From: an uncultured Actinomycetota bacterium
GTDB lineage: Bacteria > Actinomycetota > Actinomycetes > Mycobacteriales > Mycobacteriaceae
DNA: 64,000 nt
Direction: 5' to 3'
NCBI GenBank assembly: GCA_963841555.1
Contig: CAWJDL010000001.1
Span: 13,979 to 77,978 of the forward strand
Positions 56,237 to 64,000 of the stretch are shown piece by piece. Below the pieces are notes generated by a model that was not told where the DNA came from, did not search any database, and worked only from the letters and a program-made list of their open reading frames with translations. Each line of letters opens with the position of its first letter. The stretch's first letter is position 1. Both the position numbers and the translations under genes were made by a program.

Positions 56237-59200
56237 ATGACCGTAACCTTGACCCGTCGGACGTCCCGGTACTGGTGGGTGCCGGCGGCGGCCGGCTGGA
56301 CGGTCGGCATCATCGCCACGCTGTCTCTGATCGCGAGCGTCTCGCCGGGCATCCGGTGGATCATCAAGGAGCCCCGCGAGTTCGTCAACGACTACATCTT
56401 CAACTTCCCCGACACGAGCTTCGCGTGGGCCTTCGTGTTGGTCCTGCTGGCAGCGGCGCTTGCGGCCCGCAAACGCCTCGCCTGGTGGATCCTCGTGCTC
56501 TACATGGTTGCGGCTGCCGGCTGGAACGTCGTCGACCTGACCACTGGTGACGAGTCGGTCATGGCGGACCTCGGTGAGGTGATCGGGCTCGGCTTCCACA
56601 TCGCGGCGATCTTGTTCCTGGTGCTGGCCCGCAAGGAGTTCTGGGCGAAGGTGCGCCGAGGTGCGCTGTTCAAGGCCGCCGCCGCGCTGGTGGTCAGCAT
56701 GGCGGTCAGCACGCTCATCGGGTGGGCACTGCTGGAGTTCTTCCCGGGCTCGCTGGCCCGCAGTGATCGATTCCTCTACGCGTTGAACAGGGTGAGCGCG
56801 TTCGCGGGCGCCGCCTCTGATTCGTTCACCGGGCATCCGCACGTGTTCGTCAACGCTCTGCTCGGCCTTTTCGGCGCACTCGCCTTGATGGTCGCGGCGA
56901 TCGTACTGTTCCGATCGCAGCGCGCCGAGAACGCTCTCACCGGTGAGGACGAGTCGGCGATCCGCGGCCTGCTGGAGCTGTTCGGCAAGAACGACTCATT
57001 GGGATACTTCGCCACCCGCCGCGACAAGGCGGTCGTGTTCGCGCCCAGCGGCCGTGCCGCCATCACATACCGCGTCGAGGTCGGCGTCTGCCTGGCCAGC
57101 GGCGACCCGGTCGGCGACCCGAGGGCCTGGCCGCAGGCCATCGAGGCGTGGCTGGGGCTGTGCCAGACCTACGGCTGGGCACCGGGAGTGATGGGCGCCA
57201 GTTCGACCGCGGCCCAGGCGTTCCGCGAAGCCGGTCTCAACGCCCTGCAACTCGGCGACGAGGCCATCCTGTATCCGGACAATTTCCGGCTGTCCGGCCC
57301 CGACATGCGCGCCATACGCCAAGCCGTGACCCGGGCGCGGCGGGCGGGCGCCACCGTACGGATCCGCCGTCACCGTGACCTCAGCATCGAGGAGATGGCC
57401 CAAGTGACCGCGCGGGCCGACGCCTGGCGCGACACCGATAGCGAACGCGGCTTCTCGATGGCGCTCGGCCGGCTTGGCGACCCCGCCGACGGCGACTGCC
57501 TCCTGGTGGAGGCGCTGCAGAACGACAACGTCGTGGCGATGCTGTCACTCGTGCCGTGGGGCAACAACGGCGCGTCGCTGGACCTGATGCGCCGATCCCC
57601 GCAATCTCCGAACGGCACAATCGAATTGATGGTCAGCGAGCTGTGCATGCAGTCCGAGAGCATTGGGGTGACCCGGATCTCGCTGAACTTCGCGATGTTC
57701 CGCTCGGCATTCGAGCAGGGCGCACAACTGGGCGCGGGACCGGTCGCGCGGCTGTGGCGTGGCCTGCTGGTGTTCTTCTGCCGCTGGTGGCAGCTCGAGA
57801 CGCTGTACCGCTCGAACATGAAGTACCAGCCCGAGTGGGTTCCGCGCTACGCCTGCTACGAGGACGCTCGGCTGGTGCCGCGGGTCGGCGTCGCCTCCGT
57901 CATCGCCGAAGGCTTTCTTGTGCTGCCGTTCTCGCGACGACAGGATCAGCCGCACACCGGCCAACACATTGCCGCGCCGGAAAATCTGGTGGCGACGGGG
58001 TTGTTGCACCACGACGGCAGCGCGCCCGATCTCGGCGAGCTGCAGGCGGACCTGCCCGAGGCCGACGAGCAGACACGCTTGCCGGAACAGGTGCGCGTGC
58101 GGATGGCCAAGCTAAAGACGTTGCAGGACAGCGGCGTCGACGCTTATCCGGTCGGCGAGGCGCCCAGCCACACCATCGCGCAGGCGGTCGACGCAGGCGA
58201 CGACGAAGCGGTGACCATATCCGGACGGATATTGCGCATCCGCGACTACGGCGGCGTGCTGTTCGCCCAGCTGCGCGACTGGTCTGGCGAAGTCCAACTG
58301 CTGCTTGACAATTCGGTGCTCGAAAAGGGGACGACCGCGGACTTCACCCACGCCCTCGATCTGGGCGACCTGATCGAGGTGACCGGATCGATGGGTCGCA
58401 GCAAGAAGGGCACCCGGTCGCTGATGGTGCGCGGATGGCGGTTGATCGGCAAGTGCCTGCGCCCGCTGCCCGACAAGTGGAAGGGATTGACCGACCAGGA
58501 GGCGCGGGTGCGTGCCCGATACGTCGACCTGGCGATCAACACCGAGGCCCGCGACCTGATCCGGGCCCGCAGCGGCGTGCTGCACGCGATCCGCGAAACC
58601 CTGGTCGGCAAGGGGTTTTTGGAGGTCGAGACGCCGATCCTGCAGCAGATCCACGGCGGCGCCAACGCCAGGCCGTTCCTGACCCACATCAACGCCTACG
58701 ACCTCGACCTGTACCTGCGCATCGCCCCGGAGCTCTACCTCAAGCGGCTGTGTGTCGGCGGTGTCGAGCGGGTCTTCGAGCTGGGCCGGGCATTCCGCAA
58801 CGAGGGCGTCGACTTCAGCCACAACCCCGAGTTCACACTGCTGGAGGCCTACCAGGCGCACGCCGACTACAACGTGTGGATCGACGGCTGCCGCGAGCTG
58901 ATTCAGAACGCCGCGCAGGCCGCCAACGGCGCGCACGTGTTTCTGCGTCCCCGCGACGACGGCACCACTGGAGCCCGTCGACATCTCCGGTGAGTGGACC
59001 GTGAAGACCGTGCACGGCGCGGTGTCGGAGGCGTTGGGCGAGCAGGTCGGGCCCGACACCGATCTGGCTACGCTGCGCAAGCTGTGCGACGCGGCGGATA
59101 TCCCTTATCTGACCCACTGGGATGCCGGCGCGGTGGTGCTCGAACTCTACGAGCGGCTGGTCGAGGACCGCACCGAGGCGCCCACCTTCTACAAGGACTT

Positions 59201-59534
59201 CCCGACGTCGGTTTCGCCGCTGACCCGGCCGCACCGCAGCATTCCCGGAGTGGCCGAGCGCTGGGACCTGGTGGCGTGGGGCGTCGAGTTGGGCACCGCC
59301 TACAGCGAGCTGACGGATCCGGTTGAGCAGCGCAGGCGGCTGCAGGAGCAGTCGCTGTTGGCCTCCGGCGGCGATCCCGAGGCGATGGAACTCGACGAGG
59401 ACTTTCTGCAGGCCATGGAATACGCAATGCCGCCGACGGGCGGGCTCGGCATGGGCGTCGACCGCGTCGTAATGCTGATCACCGGACGCAGCATCCGCGA
59501 AACCCTGCCGTTCCCATTAGCCAAACCGCGTTAG
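56237..59534 (+). CDS. lysX: Bifunctional lysylphosphatidylglycerol synthase / lysyl-tRNA ligase, apparent +1 frameshift near 58967
   Basis: MprF-like membrane and transferase domains, then LysRS ([16 protein letters not shown]). Motif 3 (GGLGMGVDR) is in a second frame. Removing one A gives 1098 aa. Confidence 0.94.
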
Positions 59535-59691
59535 CAGGAATCGAGGCCTCGGTTTCATTACCCGGCTGGCATGCGGGGAAGCGGAAGCACTGCGGTGACG
59601 ACGCTTCGGCCCCGCCGGATGTGAAACCCCGCTCCCACCGTGCGTACACAAACGGGCGAGGTCGGCGCACGGCTTCTGCCGACGGACGGAA

Positions 59692-59713
59692 TGTCGGTGG
59701 CCAACGCTAGCGT
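59692..59713 (+). promoter_or_regulatory. PafBC/RecA-NDp-type DNA-damage promoter
   Basis: TGTCGG-TGGCCAACGC-TAGCGT matches TGTCGG-N10-TA-N3-T exactly. ATG lies 7 nt downstream. Confidence 0.75.
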
Positions 59714-59720
59714 GCGAAGT

Positions 59721-60911
59721 ATGAAGCAGGTGGCGAAGGTTCGGATACTCCCGACCGGAGCCGAGGCAGCTGCCTTGGACGCCACCATCCGTGCGTGCAA
59801 CAGCGCCGCGTCGTGGCTATCGGCCCAAATGCATGGCGAGCGCGTGTACCGCAAACATGAGGCACAGAAGCGCTTTTACGCTGAGTTGCGACAAAGGTTT
59901 GGCTTGTCGGCGCAACCGGCCATCCGCGTGATTGGCAAGGTCGCCGATGCGTACACCACTTTGCGCGCGAACATCGCCGCTGGCAACTGCGGTGCCCCCG
60001 GATCGCGGCGTCGTGCGAAGACGGTAGCGACGCCCATCCAATTCCGGGACGTTGCGGCCCAACCGTTCGACGCGCGGTGTCTGTCCTGGCAGATCCCTGA
60101 CGTGATCGGCGGACGAGAAGCGACGGTATCGATTTGGTCCGTGCACGGACGGTTGCGCAATGTTCGTGTGCTTGCTGCTCCAGCAGATCTGGCTTTACTG
60201 CGCACCCGTCCGATCGGAGAGACCGACCTAATCTATCGGGACGGCAATTGGTTCCTGTACGCCACCATCGAAGCGCCCGAAGCGCCATTGGCCGAACCGG
60301 CCAACGGATTCTTGGGCGTTGACATGGGCATCGTCAACATCGCCACCACCAGCATCGGTCGGAGAGCTTCCGGTGCCCGATTGAATTCCTACCGCAAGCG
60401 ACAGGCGCGGCTGCGGAAAAGGTTACAGGCCAAGAAAACTAGCTCGGCGCGACGATTGCTGAAGAAGCGAGGCCGCAAAGAGGCCCGCTTCGCCGCCGAC
60501 ATCAACCACCAGATCTCCAAACGCATCGTGGCCGAGGCTGAACGCACCGGATGCGGTATCGCCGTCGAACAACTGACGGGGATCCGTGACCGGGTACGGC
60601 TTCGCAAGCCCCAACGGGCCACGCTGCACACCTGGGCATTTGCCCAACTCGGCTCGTTTCTGGCCTACAAGGCCAAGCAGGGCGGAGTGGCGTTCGTCGA
60701 GGTCGACCCCGCCTACACGTCGCAGATGTGCAGTGCGTGCGGCTGGGTCGACAAACGAAACCGCAAATCTCAAGCGGTGTTCGAGTGTGGTCGGTGTGAC
60801 TTCGTTGGGCACGCCGACCACAATGCAGCGATCAACATCGCATCTCGCGGTGTCGAGCGCTGGGGCGAAATCATGCGCCCGCACGCAGCGCCCACCCTGA
60901 CAGCCAGTTAG
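59721..60911 (+). CDS. tnpB: IS200/IS605-family RNA-guided endonuclease TnpB (no TnpA)
   Basis: RuvC-I GVDMG, RuvC-II IAVEQL, zinc finger CSAC/CGRC, RuvC-III HADHNAAINI. Confidence 0.92.
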   Translation: MKQVAKVRILPTGAEAAALDATIRACNSAASWLSAQMHGERVYRKHEAQKRFYAELRQRFGLSAQPAIRVIGKVADAYTTLRANIAAGNCGAPGSRRRAKTVATPIQFRDVAAQPFDARCLSWQIPDVIGGREATVSIWSVHGRLRNVRVLAAPADLALLRTRPIGETDLIYRDGNWFLYATIEAPEAPLAEPANGFLGVDMGIVNIATTSIGRRASGARLNSYRKRQARLRKRLQAKKTSSARRLLKKRGRKEARFAADINHQISKRIVAEAERTGCGIAVEQLTGIRDRVRLRKPQRATLHTWAFAQLGSFLAYKAKQGGVAFVEVDPAYTSQMCSACGWVDKRNRKSQAVFECGRCDFVGHADHNAAINIASRGVERWGEIMRPHAAPTLTAS

Positions 60912-61023
60912 GGCGGCAGCAGCAAGCCTATAGGCAGCCGGAAGGCTAAGGACGACGCAAGATCCCGACCCTTCACAGGTTCATGACAGGCGGTCCTAAG
61001 GAATCGCGTCCACGATTGTTGCC

Positions 61024-62460
61024 GTGACGTTACTCGAGCCGTTGCGCCACCACCTCTCGCTGATGCACGGTTGGATTCCGATAACGGCGCAAGTCGTCGC
61101 AGGCCTCCTGCTGATCGCCGCGATCGGCTGGCGGAACCGGCGCTGGCGCCTGTTGTGGCTGCCGTGGGCCGCGCTGGTCGGGGTCGCGCTGGCGGTGGCG
61201 GCGTACTGGTACATCGCCTCTGAGGGGATGAGTGACCACACCAATCCCGCCCCGTACTCGTTGTGGATCTGGATCGGAATCTCCGGCGTCGCCGCCGGGG
61301 TGCTGATCGCAGGCTGGCGCGGCGCGCGCTGGTGGCGGCGCGGCGTGTCGACGCTTGCGCTGCCGCTGTGCCTGTTGTGTTCGGCGCTGGCCCTGAATCT
61401 GTGGGTCGGTTACTTCCCCACGGTGCAGACCGCGTGGAGTCAGCTCACCGCAGGACCATTGCCCGACCAAACGGACGCCGTCACGGTGACCGCGATGCAG
61501 AAACAGCATGCGATTCCGGCGAAGGGCACCGTCGTGCCGGTCACCATTCCCAGTGTGGCGTCGGGTTTCAAGCACCGCGGTGAGCTGATCTACCTACCGC
61601 CGGCCTGGTATGCCACCGATCCCCCGCCGCCGCTGCCGACGGTGATGATGATCGGCGGCGAGTTCAACACTCCCGCCGACTGGCTCCGGGCGGGCAACGC
61701 GGTGAAGACGATCGACGACTTCGCGGCGGCGCACGGCGGCAACGCGCCGGTGTTCGTGTTCGTCGACTCGGGCGGCGCGTTCAACAACGACACCGAATGC
61801 GTCAACGGTGTGCGTGGCAACGCTGCCGACCATCTCACCAAAGATGTTGTCCCGTTCATGATTTCGCAATACGGCGTGTCACCGAACCGGGCCAACTGGG
61901 GCGTCGCCGGATGGTCGATGGGCGGCACATGCGCCGTCGACCTGACGGTGATGCATCCCGATATGTTCAGCGCATTTGAGGACATTGCAGGGGACCTGAC
62001 GCCCAACTCGGGAAACAAGGCCCAGACCATTGCGCGCCTGTTCGGCGGGAACGCCGCAGCATATGCGGCCTTCGACCCGACCACGGTAATCACCCACCAC
62101 GGCCCCTACGTAGGGGTAGCGGGCCGGTTCGACATCAACGGCACGACGCCGCCGTCGCCGCAGCGCAACGTGGTGGTCAACGCGGCGGCCAACCCCAACG
62201 ACCAAACCGCGGCGGCGAACTCGCTATGCGCGACGGGCAGCGCCGACGGCATCACATGCGCGGTGGTGTCCCAGCCGGGCAAACACGACTGGCCGTTCGC
62301 GGCCCACGCATTCGCCGCGGCGCTGCCGTGGATGGCGGGCCAGCTCGGCACACCCGGCTTGCGAGCGATTCCGCTGCCGGCACCGCCGCCGCCGGCGCCA
62401 CCGTTGCCACTGCCCGCTCCGCCACAGTCCGCGCCACATCTGCAGGCGGCGTCGAGGTAG
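61024..62460 (+). CDS. Membrane-anchored alpha/beta-hydrolase esterase (Rv1639c-like)
   Basis: N-terminal TM segments, GWSMGG nucleophile, GKHDW, Pro-rich tail. Confidence 0.85.
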   Translation: MTLLEPLRHHLSLMHGWIPITAQVVAGLLLIAAIGWRNRRWRLLWLPWAALVGVALAVAAYWYIASEGMSDHTNPAPYSLWIWIGISGVAAGVLIAGWRGARWWRRGVSTLALPLCLLCSALALNLWVGYFPTVQTAWSQLTAGPLPDQTDAVTVTAMQKQHAIPAKGTVVPVTIPSVASGFKHRGELIYLPPAWYATDPPPPLPTVMMIGGEFNTPADWLRAGNAVKTIDDFAAAHGGNAPVFVFVDSGGAFNNDTECVNGVRGNAADHLTKDVVPFMISQYGVSPNRANWGVAGWSMGGTCAVDLTVMHPDMFSAFEDIAGDLTPNSGNKAQTIARLFGGNAAAYAAFDPTTVITHHGPYVGVAGRFDINGTTPPSPQRNVVVNAAANPNDQTAAANSLCATGSADGITCAVVSQPGKHDWPFAAHAFAAALPWMAGQLGTPGLRAIPLPAPPPPAPPLPLPAPPQSAPHLQAASR

Positions 62461-62462
62461 GC

Positions 62463-63839
62463 CTAGAGCTGGTTGACGGCCAGAGCGTCCTCGACTGGAT
62501 CGTGATAGCCCGTCGGCGCGTATAACCGCCACCCACCAGGAACGCCTTTGAGTTCATGGACATCCCGGTCCTCGAACGTTATTCCGGACCCGTAGACGAG
62601 CTCTTTCACGGTATTCGATACGAGTACCTCTCCCGCGGTCGCTTTCGCTGCGATTCGTGCGGCGATATGGACCGCGATTCCACCGAGGTCTCCGCCGCGC
62701 CGCACGCATTCGCCCGTGTGCAGACCGCTGCGAATGTGAACACCGATCTGCGGCATGCGTTCGACAAGTGTGGTGGCGCACAGGACGGCTCGCGTCGGGC
62801 AATCGAAGCTCGCCACCAGCCCATCACCCGTGTCTTTGACGAATCGGCCTCGGAACAAAGCGATTTCGGCACGCGCGATCTCGTGGTGGCGGTCAAGCAG
62901 CTCCCGCCAGCGCTGGTCGCCGAGCTTGGCGGCGTGCCTGGTGGAATCGACGATGTCGGTGAACATCACAGTGGCCAAGACTCGATCCGGTGGATGCTCG
63001 TGCCGCTGCCCGGTCAGGAACTCCTCCATCTCACCGGTGATCGAGGTGACGTCACCGACCCACGGCAGATGGTCGATGCCGTCTAACTCGACGAATCGCG
63101 CGCCTGAGATTCGTGCAGCGAGATCCCGCCCCAGCGCTATCGGGGCCGTTTCTCCTCTGCGATGAAGCACCAGGGTCGGAACCCGGACACTGCCAAGGAT
63201 GTCCTTCATATCTAGTTGCCGCAGTACCGCCTGCCAGGTGATCAGGGCCATCTTCGGGCTCATGGCAGCTCGTTCGAGTGCGCCCATCGCCCGTCTGGCT
63301 TCGGCGTCGTCACGCAGGCTGGGCGCTGCCCAATCGATCGTCTGCCCCTCGCCCCAGTGGTCAACTGTCGACCGAATTCTCGCGATGAGGTCGAGCGAAC
63401 GTTGCATAGTCGCCTCATCGAAGAGATCAGGCGCCCCACCGGCGCCCGTCCCATAGAGGATCAGTGCGCGAACACGCTCGGGATAGGTGGCGGCGAACAC
63501 AACGCTAATCGGGCCGCCCTCTGAGAACCCGAACAGCGCCGCACGTTCACAGCCGGCGGCATCCATCACCGCGTGCAAGTCGTCGACGCGGTTCTCGATT
63601 GTGGGCACCCCATCAACCGGATCAGATAGCCCGGTCCCCCTCTTGTCGTACAGGATTACGCGCGCAAACGACGCAAGCTCGCCGACAAGGGTGCGCCATC
63701 GAACGTCGCCCCACTGCATGTCGATGTGAGAGAACCAGCCAGGAACGACAACCAGATCAATTAGGCCGTCGCCCACGATCTGGTAGGCGACGTTGCCGTC
63801 CGGCCCCTTCGCGTAATGCGTCTGGGGCGGCTCGACCAT
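62463..63839 (-). CDS. Alpha/beta-hydrolase plus class III cyclase fusion (LipJ/Rv1900c-like)
   Basis: GFSEGG, then FTDIVDST, KDTGDG, GLHTGE and AVHIAARI motifs. Confidence 0.9.
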   Translation of the reverse strand: MVEPPQTHYAKGPDGNVAYQIVGDGLIDLVVVPGWFSHIDMQWGDVRWRTLVGELASFARVILYDKRGTGLSDPVDGVPTIENRVDDLHAVMDAAGCERAALFGFSEGGPISVVFAATYPERVRALILYGTGAGGAPDLFDEATMQRSLDLIARIRSTVDHWGEGQTIDWAAPSLRDDAEARRAMGALERAAMSPKMALITWQAVLRQLDMKDILGSVRVPTLVLHRRGETAPIALGRDLAARISGARFVELDGIDHLPWVGDVTSITGEMEEFLTGQRHEHPPDRVLATVMFTDIVDSTRHAAKLGDQRWRELLDRHHEIARAEIALFRGRFVKDTGDGLVASFDCPTRAVLCATTLVERMPQIGVHIRSGLHTGECVRRGGDLGGIAVHIAARIAAKATAGEVLVSNTVKELVYGSGITFEDRDVHELKGVPGGWRLYAPTGYHDPVEDALAVNQL

Positions 63840-63905
63840 AGACGCAAGTGTCCCACGGACGAAACCGGCCACTACGCTTCGAATAAAGCCGAGTAGCGTG
63901 AGGCC

Positions 63906-64000
63906 ATGGCCGACGATCGCAGCGCAGAGGCGAACTCGACTCCCGAACCGGAACCCCCCGCCGAGACCACGCCGGTCGCCGCCCCGGTCGAGCCCGTCGA
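63906..64000 (+). CDS. Partial Pro-rich N-terminus of a hypothetical protein (possibly Rv1638A-like)
   Basis: ATG at 63906 is open to the window end. Assignment by synteny only. Confidence 0.35.
   Translation, partial: MADDRSAEANSTPEPEPPAETTPVAAPVEPV

Follow-up and report, generated by a model that had tools for sequence, protein, structure and literature searches.

Members of the IS200/IS605 family that carry a single tnpB gene (IS1341-type) lack terminal inverted repeats, make no target-site duplication, insert 3' of a specific pentamer and encode an omegaRNA that overlaps the 3' end of tnpB (the insertion properties of the family are described in PMC13565253). Working elements of this type keep both subterminal hairpins and can be moved in trans by TnpA. 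In the TnpB-omegaRNA of ISDra2 from Deinococcus radiodurans, an RNA-guided RuvC nuclease with structures in the PDB, bases -5 to -3 form a pseudoknot with -103 to -105 and stem 4 adjoins the guide (PMC10097598), and, from deletion analysis, the omegaRNA's 3'-most segment is reported to be essential (PMC13639567). TldRs are immobilised TnpB relatives with an adjoining guide RNA and a host gene alongside, and have lost the RuvC catalytic residues. Here we examine a tnpB gene at 59721..60911, and the element at 59559-60987 that contains it, in a 64,000-nucleotide stretch of DNA from an uncultured Actinomycetota bacterium (contig coordinates C1:13979-77978). This whole stretch is called the window, the element's copy of the family within it is called the window copy, and all features described lie on the forward strand.

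The window copy shares with IS1341-type elements each of the properties listed above, the omegaRNA being a predicted one, and, unlike working members, has no detectable left-end hairpin and a broken right-end hairpin. With ISDra2 it shares, by prediction, the nuclease type, a scaffold of about 120-135 nt, pairing of the bases 5' of the guide with a loop about 110 nt upstream, and a stem placed next to the guide. It differs in being distant by sequence, with Cas12f proteins as the closest solved chains, in its target-adjacent motif (TAM; TTCAC, not TTGAT) and in the collapse of the guide-adjacent stem. With its own IS605-group relatives (loci L006, L008, L048 and L074) it has in common a promoter motif, the omegaRNA core, the CATGAC terminus and the TAM TTCAC; those relatives also have a Y1 tnpA, and the hairpins at their left and right ends are intact; the window copy lacks both. 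Solo TnpB genes with decayed ends are common. We conclude that the segment 59559-60987 is probably an immobilised, tnpB-only (IS1341-like) relic derived from an IS200/IS605 element of the IS605 type. Its predicted guide has no TAM-flanked target in the genome and no transposase acts on it; as it stands, it would be idle and not a working mobile element.

Results and Discussion

A TAM-directed insertion between lysX and an esterase gene

The tnpB gene is flanked by the 3' end of lysX (class II tRNA-synthetase domain) on one side and by a gene for a putative esterase on the other. Empty-site alignment defines the element around it. The lysX and esterase genes are adjacent in 24 of 24 congeners, with a spacing of 33-78 nt in the three closest, and the window sequence with 59559-60987 removed aligns colinearly with seven empty lysX-esterase sites. 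On the left, the junction comes directly 3' of the conserved pentamer [CT]TCAC, which is TTCAC in two congeners and TTCAT in the window (59554..59558, the TAM position); TTCAC also stands directly 5' of seven family left ends. The right junction is 60987|60988, where the flank AGGCGGTCCTAAGG... matches the sequence after the pentamer in the empty sites of congeners. From these junctions the element extends over 1,429 bp, from 59559 to 60987. The alignment bears the signature of a TnpA-mediated, TAM-directed insertion of the IS200/IS605 type without target duplication. The element is present at this short spacer in the window lineage only, and the insertion is younger than the split from the three closest congeners, from which the lysX C-terminal region differs by a synonymous divergence (dS) of 0.45-0.60.

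Two other placements of the junctions were considered and rejected. The 8-bp direct repeat AGGAATCG (59536-59543 and 60999-61006), which lies on both sides of the insert and resembles a target-site duplication, was rejected as one because its copies align to different segments of the empty sites and the junctions defined from the family lie elsewhere. The 11-mer GAGGTCGGCGC (~59670), in the left part of the insert, has a match in one congener's empty site and would suggest a junction near 59683; the colinear alignment was preferred.

The family to which the element belongs was assembled from scans of species genomes and metagenomes, which gave 27 and 46 related loci. The full-length relatives named above encode TnpBs 74-79% identical to that of the window, and in many relatives a Y1 tnpA of the IS200 type, transcribed divergently, lies immediately upstream of tnpB. 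The upstream gene has a match to Pfam Y1_Tnp in L006, L008 and L016, the divergent tnpA matches NCBIfam transpos_IS200, and tblastn with the L008 TnpA also matches L044, L048, L051, L054, L073, L074, L078 and L081, as well as a remnant beside a paralog on contig C18 of the host genome. Because a Y1 tnpA lies upstream in these relatives, the lineage is IS605-type IS200/IS605 and not IS607; the IS607 affiliation, a first guess for a mycobacterial TnpB, was rejected since the relatives carry a Y1 TnpA and no resolvase.

The ends of the family are well defined. In seven copies the TTCAC pentamer directly precedes a conserved left end with the hairpin CCCGGCCG-TTCA-CGGCCGGG. The right end consists of GCAAG, then the hairpin CCCGTCCC-TTCA-GGGACGGG, then TCCATGAC, and homology ends exactly after CATGAC or CATGAT in 33 of 35 copies. 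The sequence-only reading of this locus had given the ending of relatives as TTGAC and had taken the end here to look eroded or rearranged. A TTGAC ending does occur, in Streptomyces and Kitasatospora relatives of 52-54% identity; in the subfamily of the window it does not apply, and CATGAC is the normal terminus there, not a sign of rearrangement.

Three paralogs that share about 76% of their nucleotides occur in the host genome (7.8 Mb, 26 contigs): the window copy, C18:49306-50551 and C6:522753-524001. The genome also holds several further TnpBs that are only ~30% identical. The many identical mobile copies that would have spoken for an ordinary active element are thus replaced by three diverged paralogs. 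No close relative was found in the plasmid and phage collections, where the best match was 55% identity in Streptomyces plasmids. A search for the omegaRNA region in 400 genomes of the family found at least one further carrier beyond those known; this count is a lower bound, as two candidates were scored per genome and the known C6 copy was missed.

All three paralogous tnpB open reading frames (ORFs) in the host genome are intact. The C18 paralog (L002, G000:C18:47806-52051) keeps TTCAC, the left end and an intact right-end hairpin, and its tnpA remnant carries an internal deletion; the C6 paralog (L003, G000:C6:521253-525501) has an eroded hairpin resembling that of the window copy.

Loss of the sequences needed for movement

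The left part of the insert (59559..59691), examined by alignment, tblastn and folding, contains no recognisable left-end hairpin or tnpA remnant. Local alignments of this segment to the seven family left ends were no better than those of shuffled sequences (p 0.14-0.59), it shows no similarity to the family TnpA, it is unique in the host genome, and its predicted fold is not significant (z -0.29). A long imperfect palindrome at 59551-59628 was tried as a left-end hairpin or as a terminator; its folding does not exceed that of shuffled sequences (z -0.29), and an 18-nt match of the left part to C4:279658 is due to chance and has no extension.

No transposase is available to the element, either locally or from a cognate copy. 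All genome-wide matches to Y1 transposases and serine recombinases lie outside the window, and tblastn with the family's own TnpA gave nothing significant in the window, in agreement with the earlier observation that the window has no tnpA. Elsewhere in the genome, the search for a cognate TnpA returned just two traces, the remnant next to the C18 paralog and, on C13, a short fragment; the other Y1 transposases, on C4 and C24, are distant (~29% identical to the family TnpA).

At the right end, the family consensus, pair counts and fold energies identify 60964..60979 as an eroded form of the terminal hairpin, which in the family has four covarying pairs. The 5' arm CCCGACCC (60964-60971) and the TTCA loop (60972-60975) are followed by a residual CAGG (60976-60979), so that against the consensus the 3' arm has been cut by a deletion of about 4 nt plus substitutions. 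Three of eight pairs can form in this hairpin and four of eight in an alternative pairing with an upstream block; no other of the 27 copies has so poor a combination. For the last 48 nt the predicted folding energy is -8.3 kcal/mol (z +0.27), as compared to -16.5 to -23.1 kcal/mol (z -1.7 to -3.5) for the same tail in relatives with intact ends. By these fold energies the absence of the 3' arm is real and exceeds chance. No second copy with the right end of the window was found among 35 family right ends or in the host genome. Subterminal hairpins are present at both ends in the relatives and fail at both ends in the window copy, which we therefore class as a decayed derivative and not as a working element. 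The proposal that the element is immobilised, and that its end is eroded and lacks a matching 3' arm, is borne out by these comparisons.

In the multiple alignment, the 3' arm of an independent copy from a Kutzneria metagenome-assembled genome (L013, 4209-4256) is interrupted at this same position by a gap, again of about 4 nt, and its sister L014 is intact. The shared gap suggests that this position may be a recurrent deletion hotspot.

An intact TnpB coding sequence

The ORF list and the raw sequence agree on a frame that starts with ATG at 59721 and ends with TAG at 60909-60911, and thus encodes 396 amino acids before the stop. The product matches Pfam OrfB_IS605 and Cas12f1-like_TNB and scores 185.5 bits with NCBIfam guided_TnpB (cut-off 100). 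Its nearest solved relatives are Cas12f and TnpB chains, with which its GVDMG, IAVEQL and ADHNAA motifs and both CxxC pairs align. The RuvC triad is formed by D201 (codon 60321-23), E283 (60567-69) and D366 (60816-18), and the zinc finger by two CxxC pairs, C337/C340 and C356/C359, with codons within 60729-60797. All seven residues are invariant in 15 intact family members, consistent with the earlier statement that three RuvC acidic motifs and four zinc-finger cysteines are intact. The fold signature is present and identifies the product as a RuvC-type TnpB of the IS200/IS605 family.

Three related identities were set aside. The IS607_TnpB model of NCBIfam gives only 55.6 bits (cut-off 350). 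A type V-F CRISPR Cas12f is ruled out by a Cas12f2 score (131 bits) below its cut-off of 450 and by the lack of any repeat array within 57000-64000. A TldR, which the locus resembles in being immobilised beside a host gene with an adjoining guide RNA, is ruled out by the intact and family-invariant D201, E283 and D366.

A predicted omegaRNA with an intact core and a collapsed guide-adjacent stem

A predicted omegaRNA scaffold overlaps the 3' end of tnpB at 60853..60987, as indicated by a covariance model, covariation and constraint on synonymous change. The covariance model, built without the window copy, matches it with a score of 124.5 bits and E 2e-35 over model positions 1-141. The scores of close relatives are 140-164 bits, those of L048, L051 and L058, which were not used in training, being 152-157 bits, and in the host genome the model finds the three known copies only. 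The family structure was derived with RNAalifold from 27 distinct copies, and the terminal hairpin and pseudoknot were added by hand. In its 54 pairs, 95.4% of the cells are paired, as against 29-49% when the partners are slid; 11-13 pairs show compensatory changes, and none of 500 shuffles reached this support. Synonymous-codon identity in the family rises to 0.83-0.84 over 60801-60908, compared with about 0.5 across most of the gene. A scan of 59300-61300 against Rfam, at E up to 10, returned two chance microRNA-like matches and no curated omegaRNA family.

In the window copy all 40 of the 40 core-helix pairs form. The hairpin GGGCG/CGCCC at 60863..60880 (100% paired in the family, two covarying pairs) carries in its loop the predicted 5' strand of a pseudoknot, in which the loop of GGGCG-AAGTCATG-CGCCC would pair with the terminal CATGAC (60982..60987). 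This 3' strand is also the right-end terminus, located by the family homology end and by the empty-site junction. Support for the pseudoknot comes from L011, where ATCATG occurs with a compensatory CATGAT, and from a G.U pair in L085. In the window copy the loop hexamer ATCATG (60870-60875) meets CATGAC with an A.C mismatch, leaving five of six pairs. A long helix across the stop codon, GCAGCGCC..CCCTGAC-AGCCA-GTTAGGG..GGCAGCAGC (60885..60923), forms 14 of 14 pairs in the window and has 98.7% pairing and two covarying pairs in the family.

Two short hairpins follow. The palindrome GCCTATAGGC (60926..60935) is the hairpin GCC-TATA-GGC, homologous to GCC-TAAC-GGC of the family and replaced in L012 by a compensatory ACC/GGT. 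The hairpin AGCC-GGAA-GGCT (60936..60947) is variable, and relatives have counterparts, with sequences read by eye, such as CCCG-TAACCA-CGGG and CCGCCG-TCCG-CGGCGG. The stop codon, both of these motifs, a second GCAAG (60957-60961) and CATGAC are all where the sequence-only reading had placed them. Its description of the right end as structured but atypical holds for the presence of the motifs; it does not hold for the two small hairpins, which are ordinary homologues of family stems.

The structure models thus portray an omegaRNA whose core would be intact and whose guide-adjacent module would not. By analogy with ISDra2, the guide-adjacent segment may be essential for the omegaRNA of the window as well.

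Two further features of family RNA structure were observed. In family right ends (alignment A3, columns 170-207; window 60950-60979) the 5' arm can pair either with GGGACGGG or with an upstream GGGAC block. These helices are mutually exclusive and have equal support, both showing compensatory changes, the downstream one at four pairs and the upstream one at six. One of them may serve TnpA as a DNA hairpin, and the other may be a stem of the omegaRNA. Second, synonymous change is unexpectedly suppressed in another zone of the gene, 60501-60620, about 370-490 nt before the right end (codon identity 0.78-0.85 versus about 0.5). An invariant stretch within this zone has the hairpin GGCTT-CGC-AAGCC (60598-60610) and a motif, GCAAGCC..AACGG, that is found again in the 3' untranslated region; the zone could act as a promoter inside the gene, as a site of processing or as an additional RNA module.

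A predicted guide without a target

The junction at 60987|60988 also fixes the start of the predicted guide, the first ~16-20 nt of the flank (60988..61007), which lies 17 nt before the esterase start codon at 61024. A candidate guide near 60988-61005 had been proposed from the letters of the sequence; the start at 60988 now has the support of the family homology end and of the empty-site junction. The comparison of the guide with genome and phages that the proposal called for revealed no target beyond chance. The 20 nt after CATGAC gave chance partial matches only in the host genome, none of them adjoining TTCAC, and a 33-nt guide query had no match in the phage collection. The lack of a genomic target is expected for a homing guide, because its target is the empty site, which is not present in the host genome.

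A DNA-damage-type promoter motif shared across the lineage

Upstream of tnpB lies a RecA-NDp (PafBC/P1-type) promoter motif, TGTCGGTG-N8-TAGCGT (59692..59713), 7 nt before the ATG. It is an exact match to the consensus tTGTCRgtg-8nt-TAnnnT (PMC5656591) and the single match in the 64-kb window, where 0.04 would be expected by chance. The motif is conserved in the family: of 32 distinct upstream regions, 18 have it at a distance of 6-7 nt from the start codon, tnpA-carrying copies included (among the carriers are L004-L012, L015, L044, L046, L051, L075 and L080). This placement implies that the tnpB transcript would be leaderless, and suggests that leaderless, DNA-damage-induced expression of TnpB may be a trait of the lineage.

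Substitutions in tnpB, and the readings of the locus

The tnpB sequence of the window was compared with 14 intact relatives. Pairwise ratios of nonsynonymous to synonymous divergence (dN/dS) were 0.14-0.24. When the dN and dS matrices were fitted by least squares to the maximum-likelihood tree, the terminal branch of the window copy had a dN of 0.063 and a dS of 0.483; their ratio, 0.13, is one of the lowest among the 15 copies. At 169 columns invariant in the other 14 sequences, the window copy has no private substitution, and the others have 1-7 each. The protein therefore looks, from its sequence, well maintained.

The reading that we consider probable, that of an immobilised relic, accommodates these data as follows. 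The element inserted by the normal route of its family, 3' of a TTCA(C/T) pentamer in the lysX-esterase spacer. It has since lost its means to move, namely tnpA, a recognisable left-end hairpin and the 3' arm of the right-end hairpin, to which TnpA would bind, and has kept the RecA-NDp/PafBC-type promoter motif, an intact tnpB and the whole predicted omegaRNA core. DNA damage may switch on the promoter so that TnpB is made, and TnpB may trim the 3' part of the transcript to an omegaRNA with a scaffold of ~60853-60987 and a guide from 60988. The resulting ribonucleoprotein is somewhat more likely than not to be impaired or inactive, an estimate based on the predicted collapse of the guide-adjacent stem and on a pseudoknot one pair short. 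The gene is intact and well conserved, and the active nuclease that the sequence-only reading had envisaged is, on the sequence, a candidate.

Several points weigh against this reading. The left boundary rests on TTCAT and not on the consensus TTCAC, and the 133 nt to the right of TTCAT cannot be demonstrated to be a former left end. No more than 2-3 mutational events account for the damage to the hairpin, which would allow a recent insertion. Among family copies, intact ORFs are found in eight of ten scorable copies with eroded hairpins and in six of nine with intact hairpins, which could mean that the hairpin is needed by TnpA and not by TnpB. For transcription, omegaRNA processing and cleavage, the evidence consists of sequence and predicted structure.

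Gene, promoter and RNA core are pristine where the transposition parts have decayed, and this contrast hints at retention. The TnpB-omegaRNA pair could have been kept by selection for a host-level or selfish function free of transposition, for example as an RNA-guided nuclease that is induced by DNA damage and whose guide is fixed. By its lack of private changes the protein is the cleanest of the 15, its terminal-branch dN/dS is low, promoter and omegaRNA core are fully kept while parts used only in transposition have decayed, and the frequency of intact ORFs among eroded-hairpin copies points the same way. We nevertheless regard this explanation as unlikely. The element is absent in 24 of 24 congeners and so is not vertically conserved, neither the genome nor the phage records hold a target for its guide, and the guide-adjacent stem is broken in both of its possible pairings. 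Nor is the low dN/dS proof of selection after immobilisation, because the terminal branch is long (dS 0.48) and mostly predates the insertion. An early exaptation of TnpB, omegaRNA core and PafBC-type promoter into the DNA-damage response of mycobacteria is doubtful to the same degree; if true, it would have taken place in a family where TnpB often outlives the hairpins.

Decidedly less plausible is that the whole unit is functionless, a pseudogene in the making whose ORF is still open because too little time has elapsed. The small number of hairpin lesions would agree with such a recent insertion, and a +1 frameshift in the neighbouring lysX may hint at local decay or at a sequence error. Intact invariant sites and core pairs, set against several changes in the 24-nt hairpin, argue the other way; with such small numbers the argument is weak, and it holds only if all these stretches have been neutral for the same time. 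That the element is a still mobilisable non-autonomous insertion sequence, with a variant right end that functions and on which another TnpA acts in trans, is very improbable: the CATGAC terminus and TAM-directed insertion are canonical and other IS605 elements with a Y1 TnpA occur on C4 and C24, but those TnpAs are the distant ones described above and are paired with TnpBs of ~30% identity, no left-end hairpin was found, the right-end hairpin cannot form, and the window's end has no second copy among the 35 family right ends or in the genome.

As an immobilised relic, the window copy fits the known life cycle of IS200/IS605 elements and matters little by itself. Its value is that TAM, both junctions, empty site, omegaRNA structure and the exact lesion are all defined, which makes it a natural test of whether the guide-adjacent stem, doubling as the hairpin bound by TnpA, is needed for TnpB activity. 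A more interesting lead than the element itself is the promoter motif, since a lineage-wide RecA-NDp/PafBC motif would link DNA damage in actinobacteria with the expression of an RNA-guided homing nuclease.

The neighbouring lysX gene

At 58967, lysX has one extra A as compared to two congeners (GGCACCACTGG versus GGCACC-CTGG). The resulting +1 frameshift splits the gene into ORFs 56237-58993 and 59001-59534. Because dN/dS of the downstream part is still ~0.03-0.08, the frameshift would be either very recent or a sequence error.

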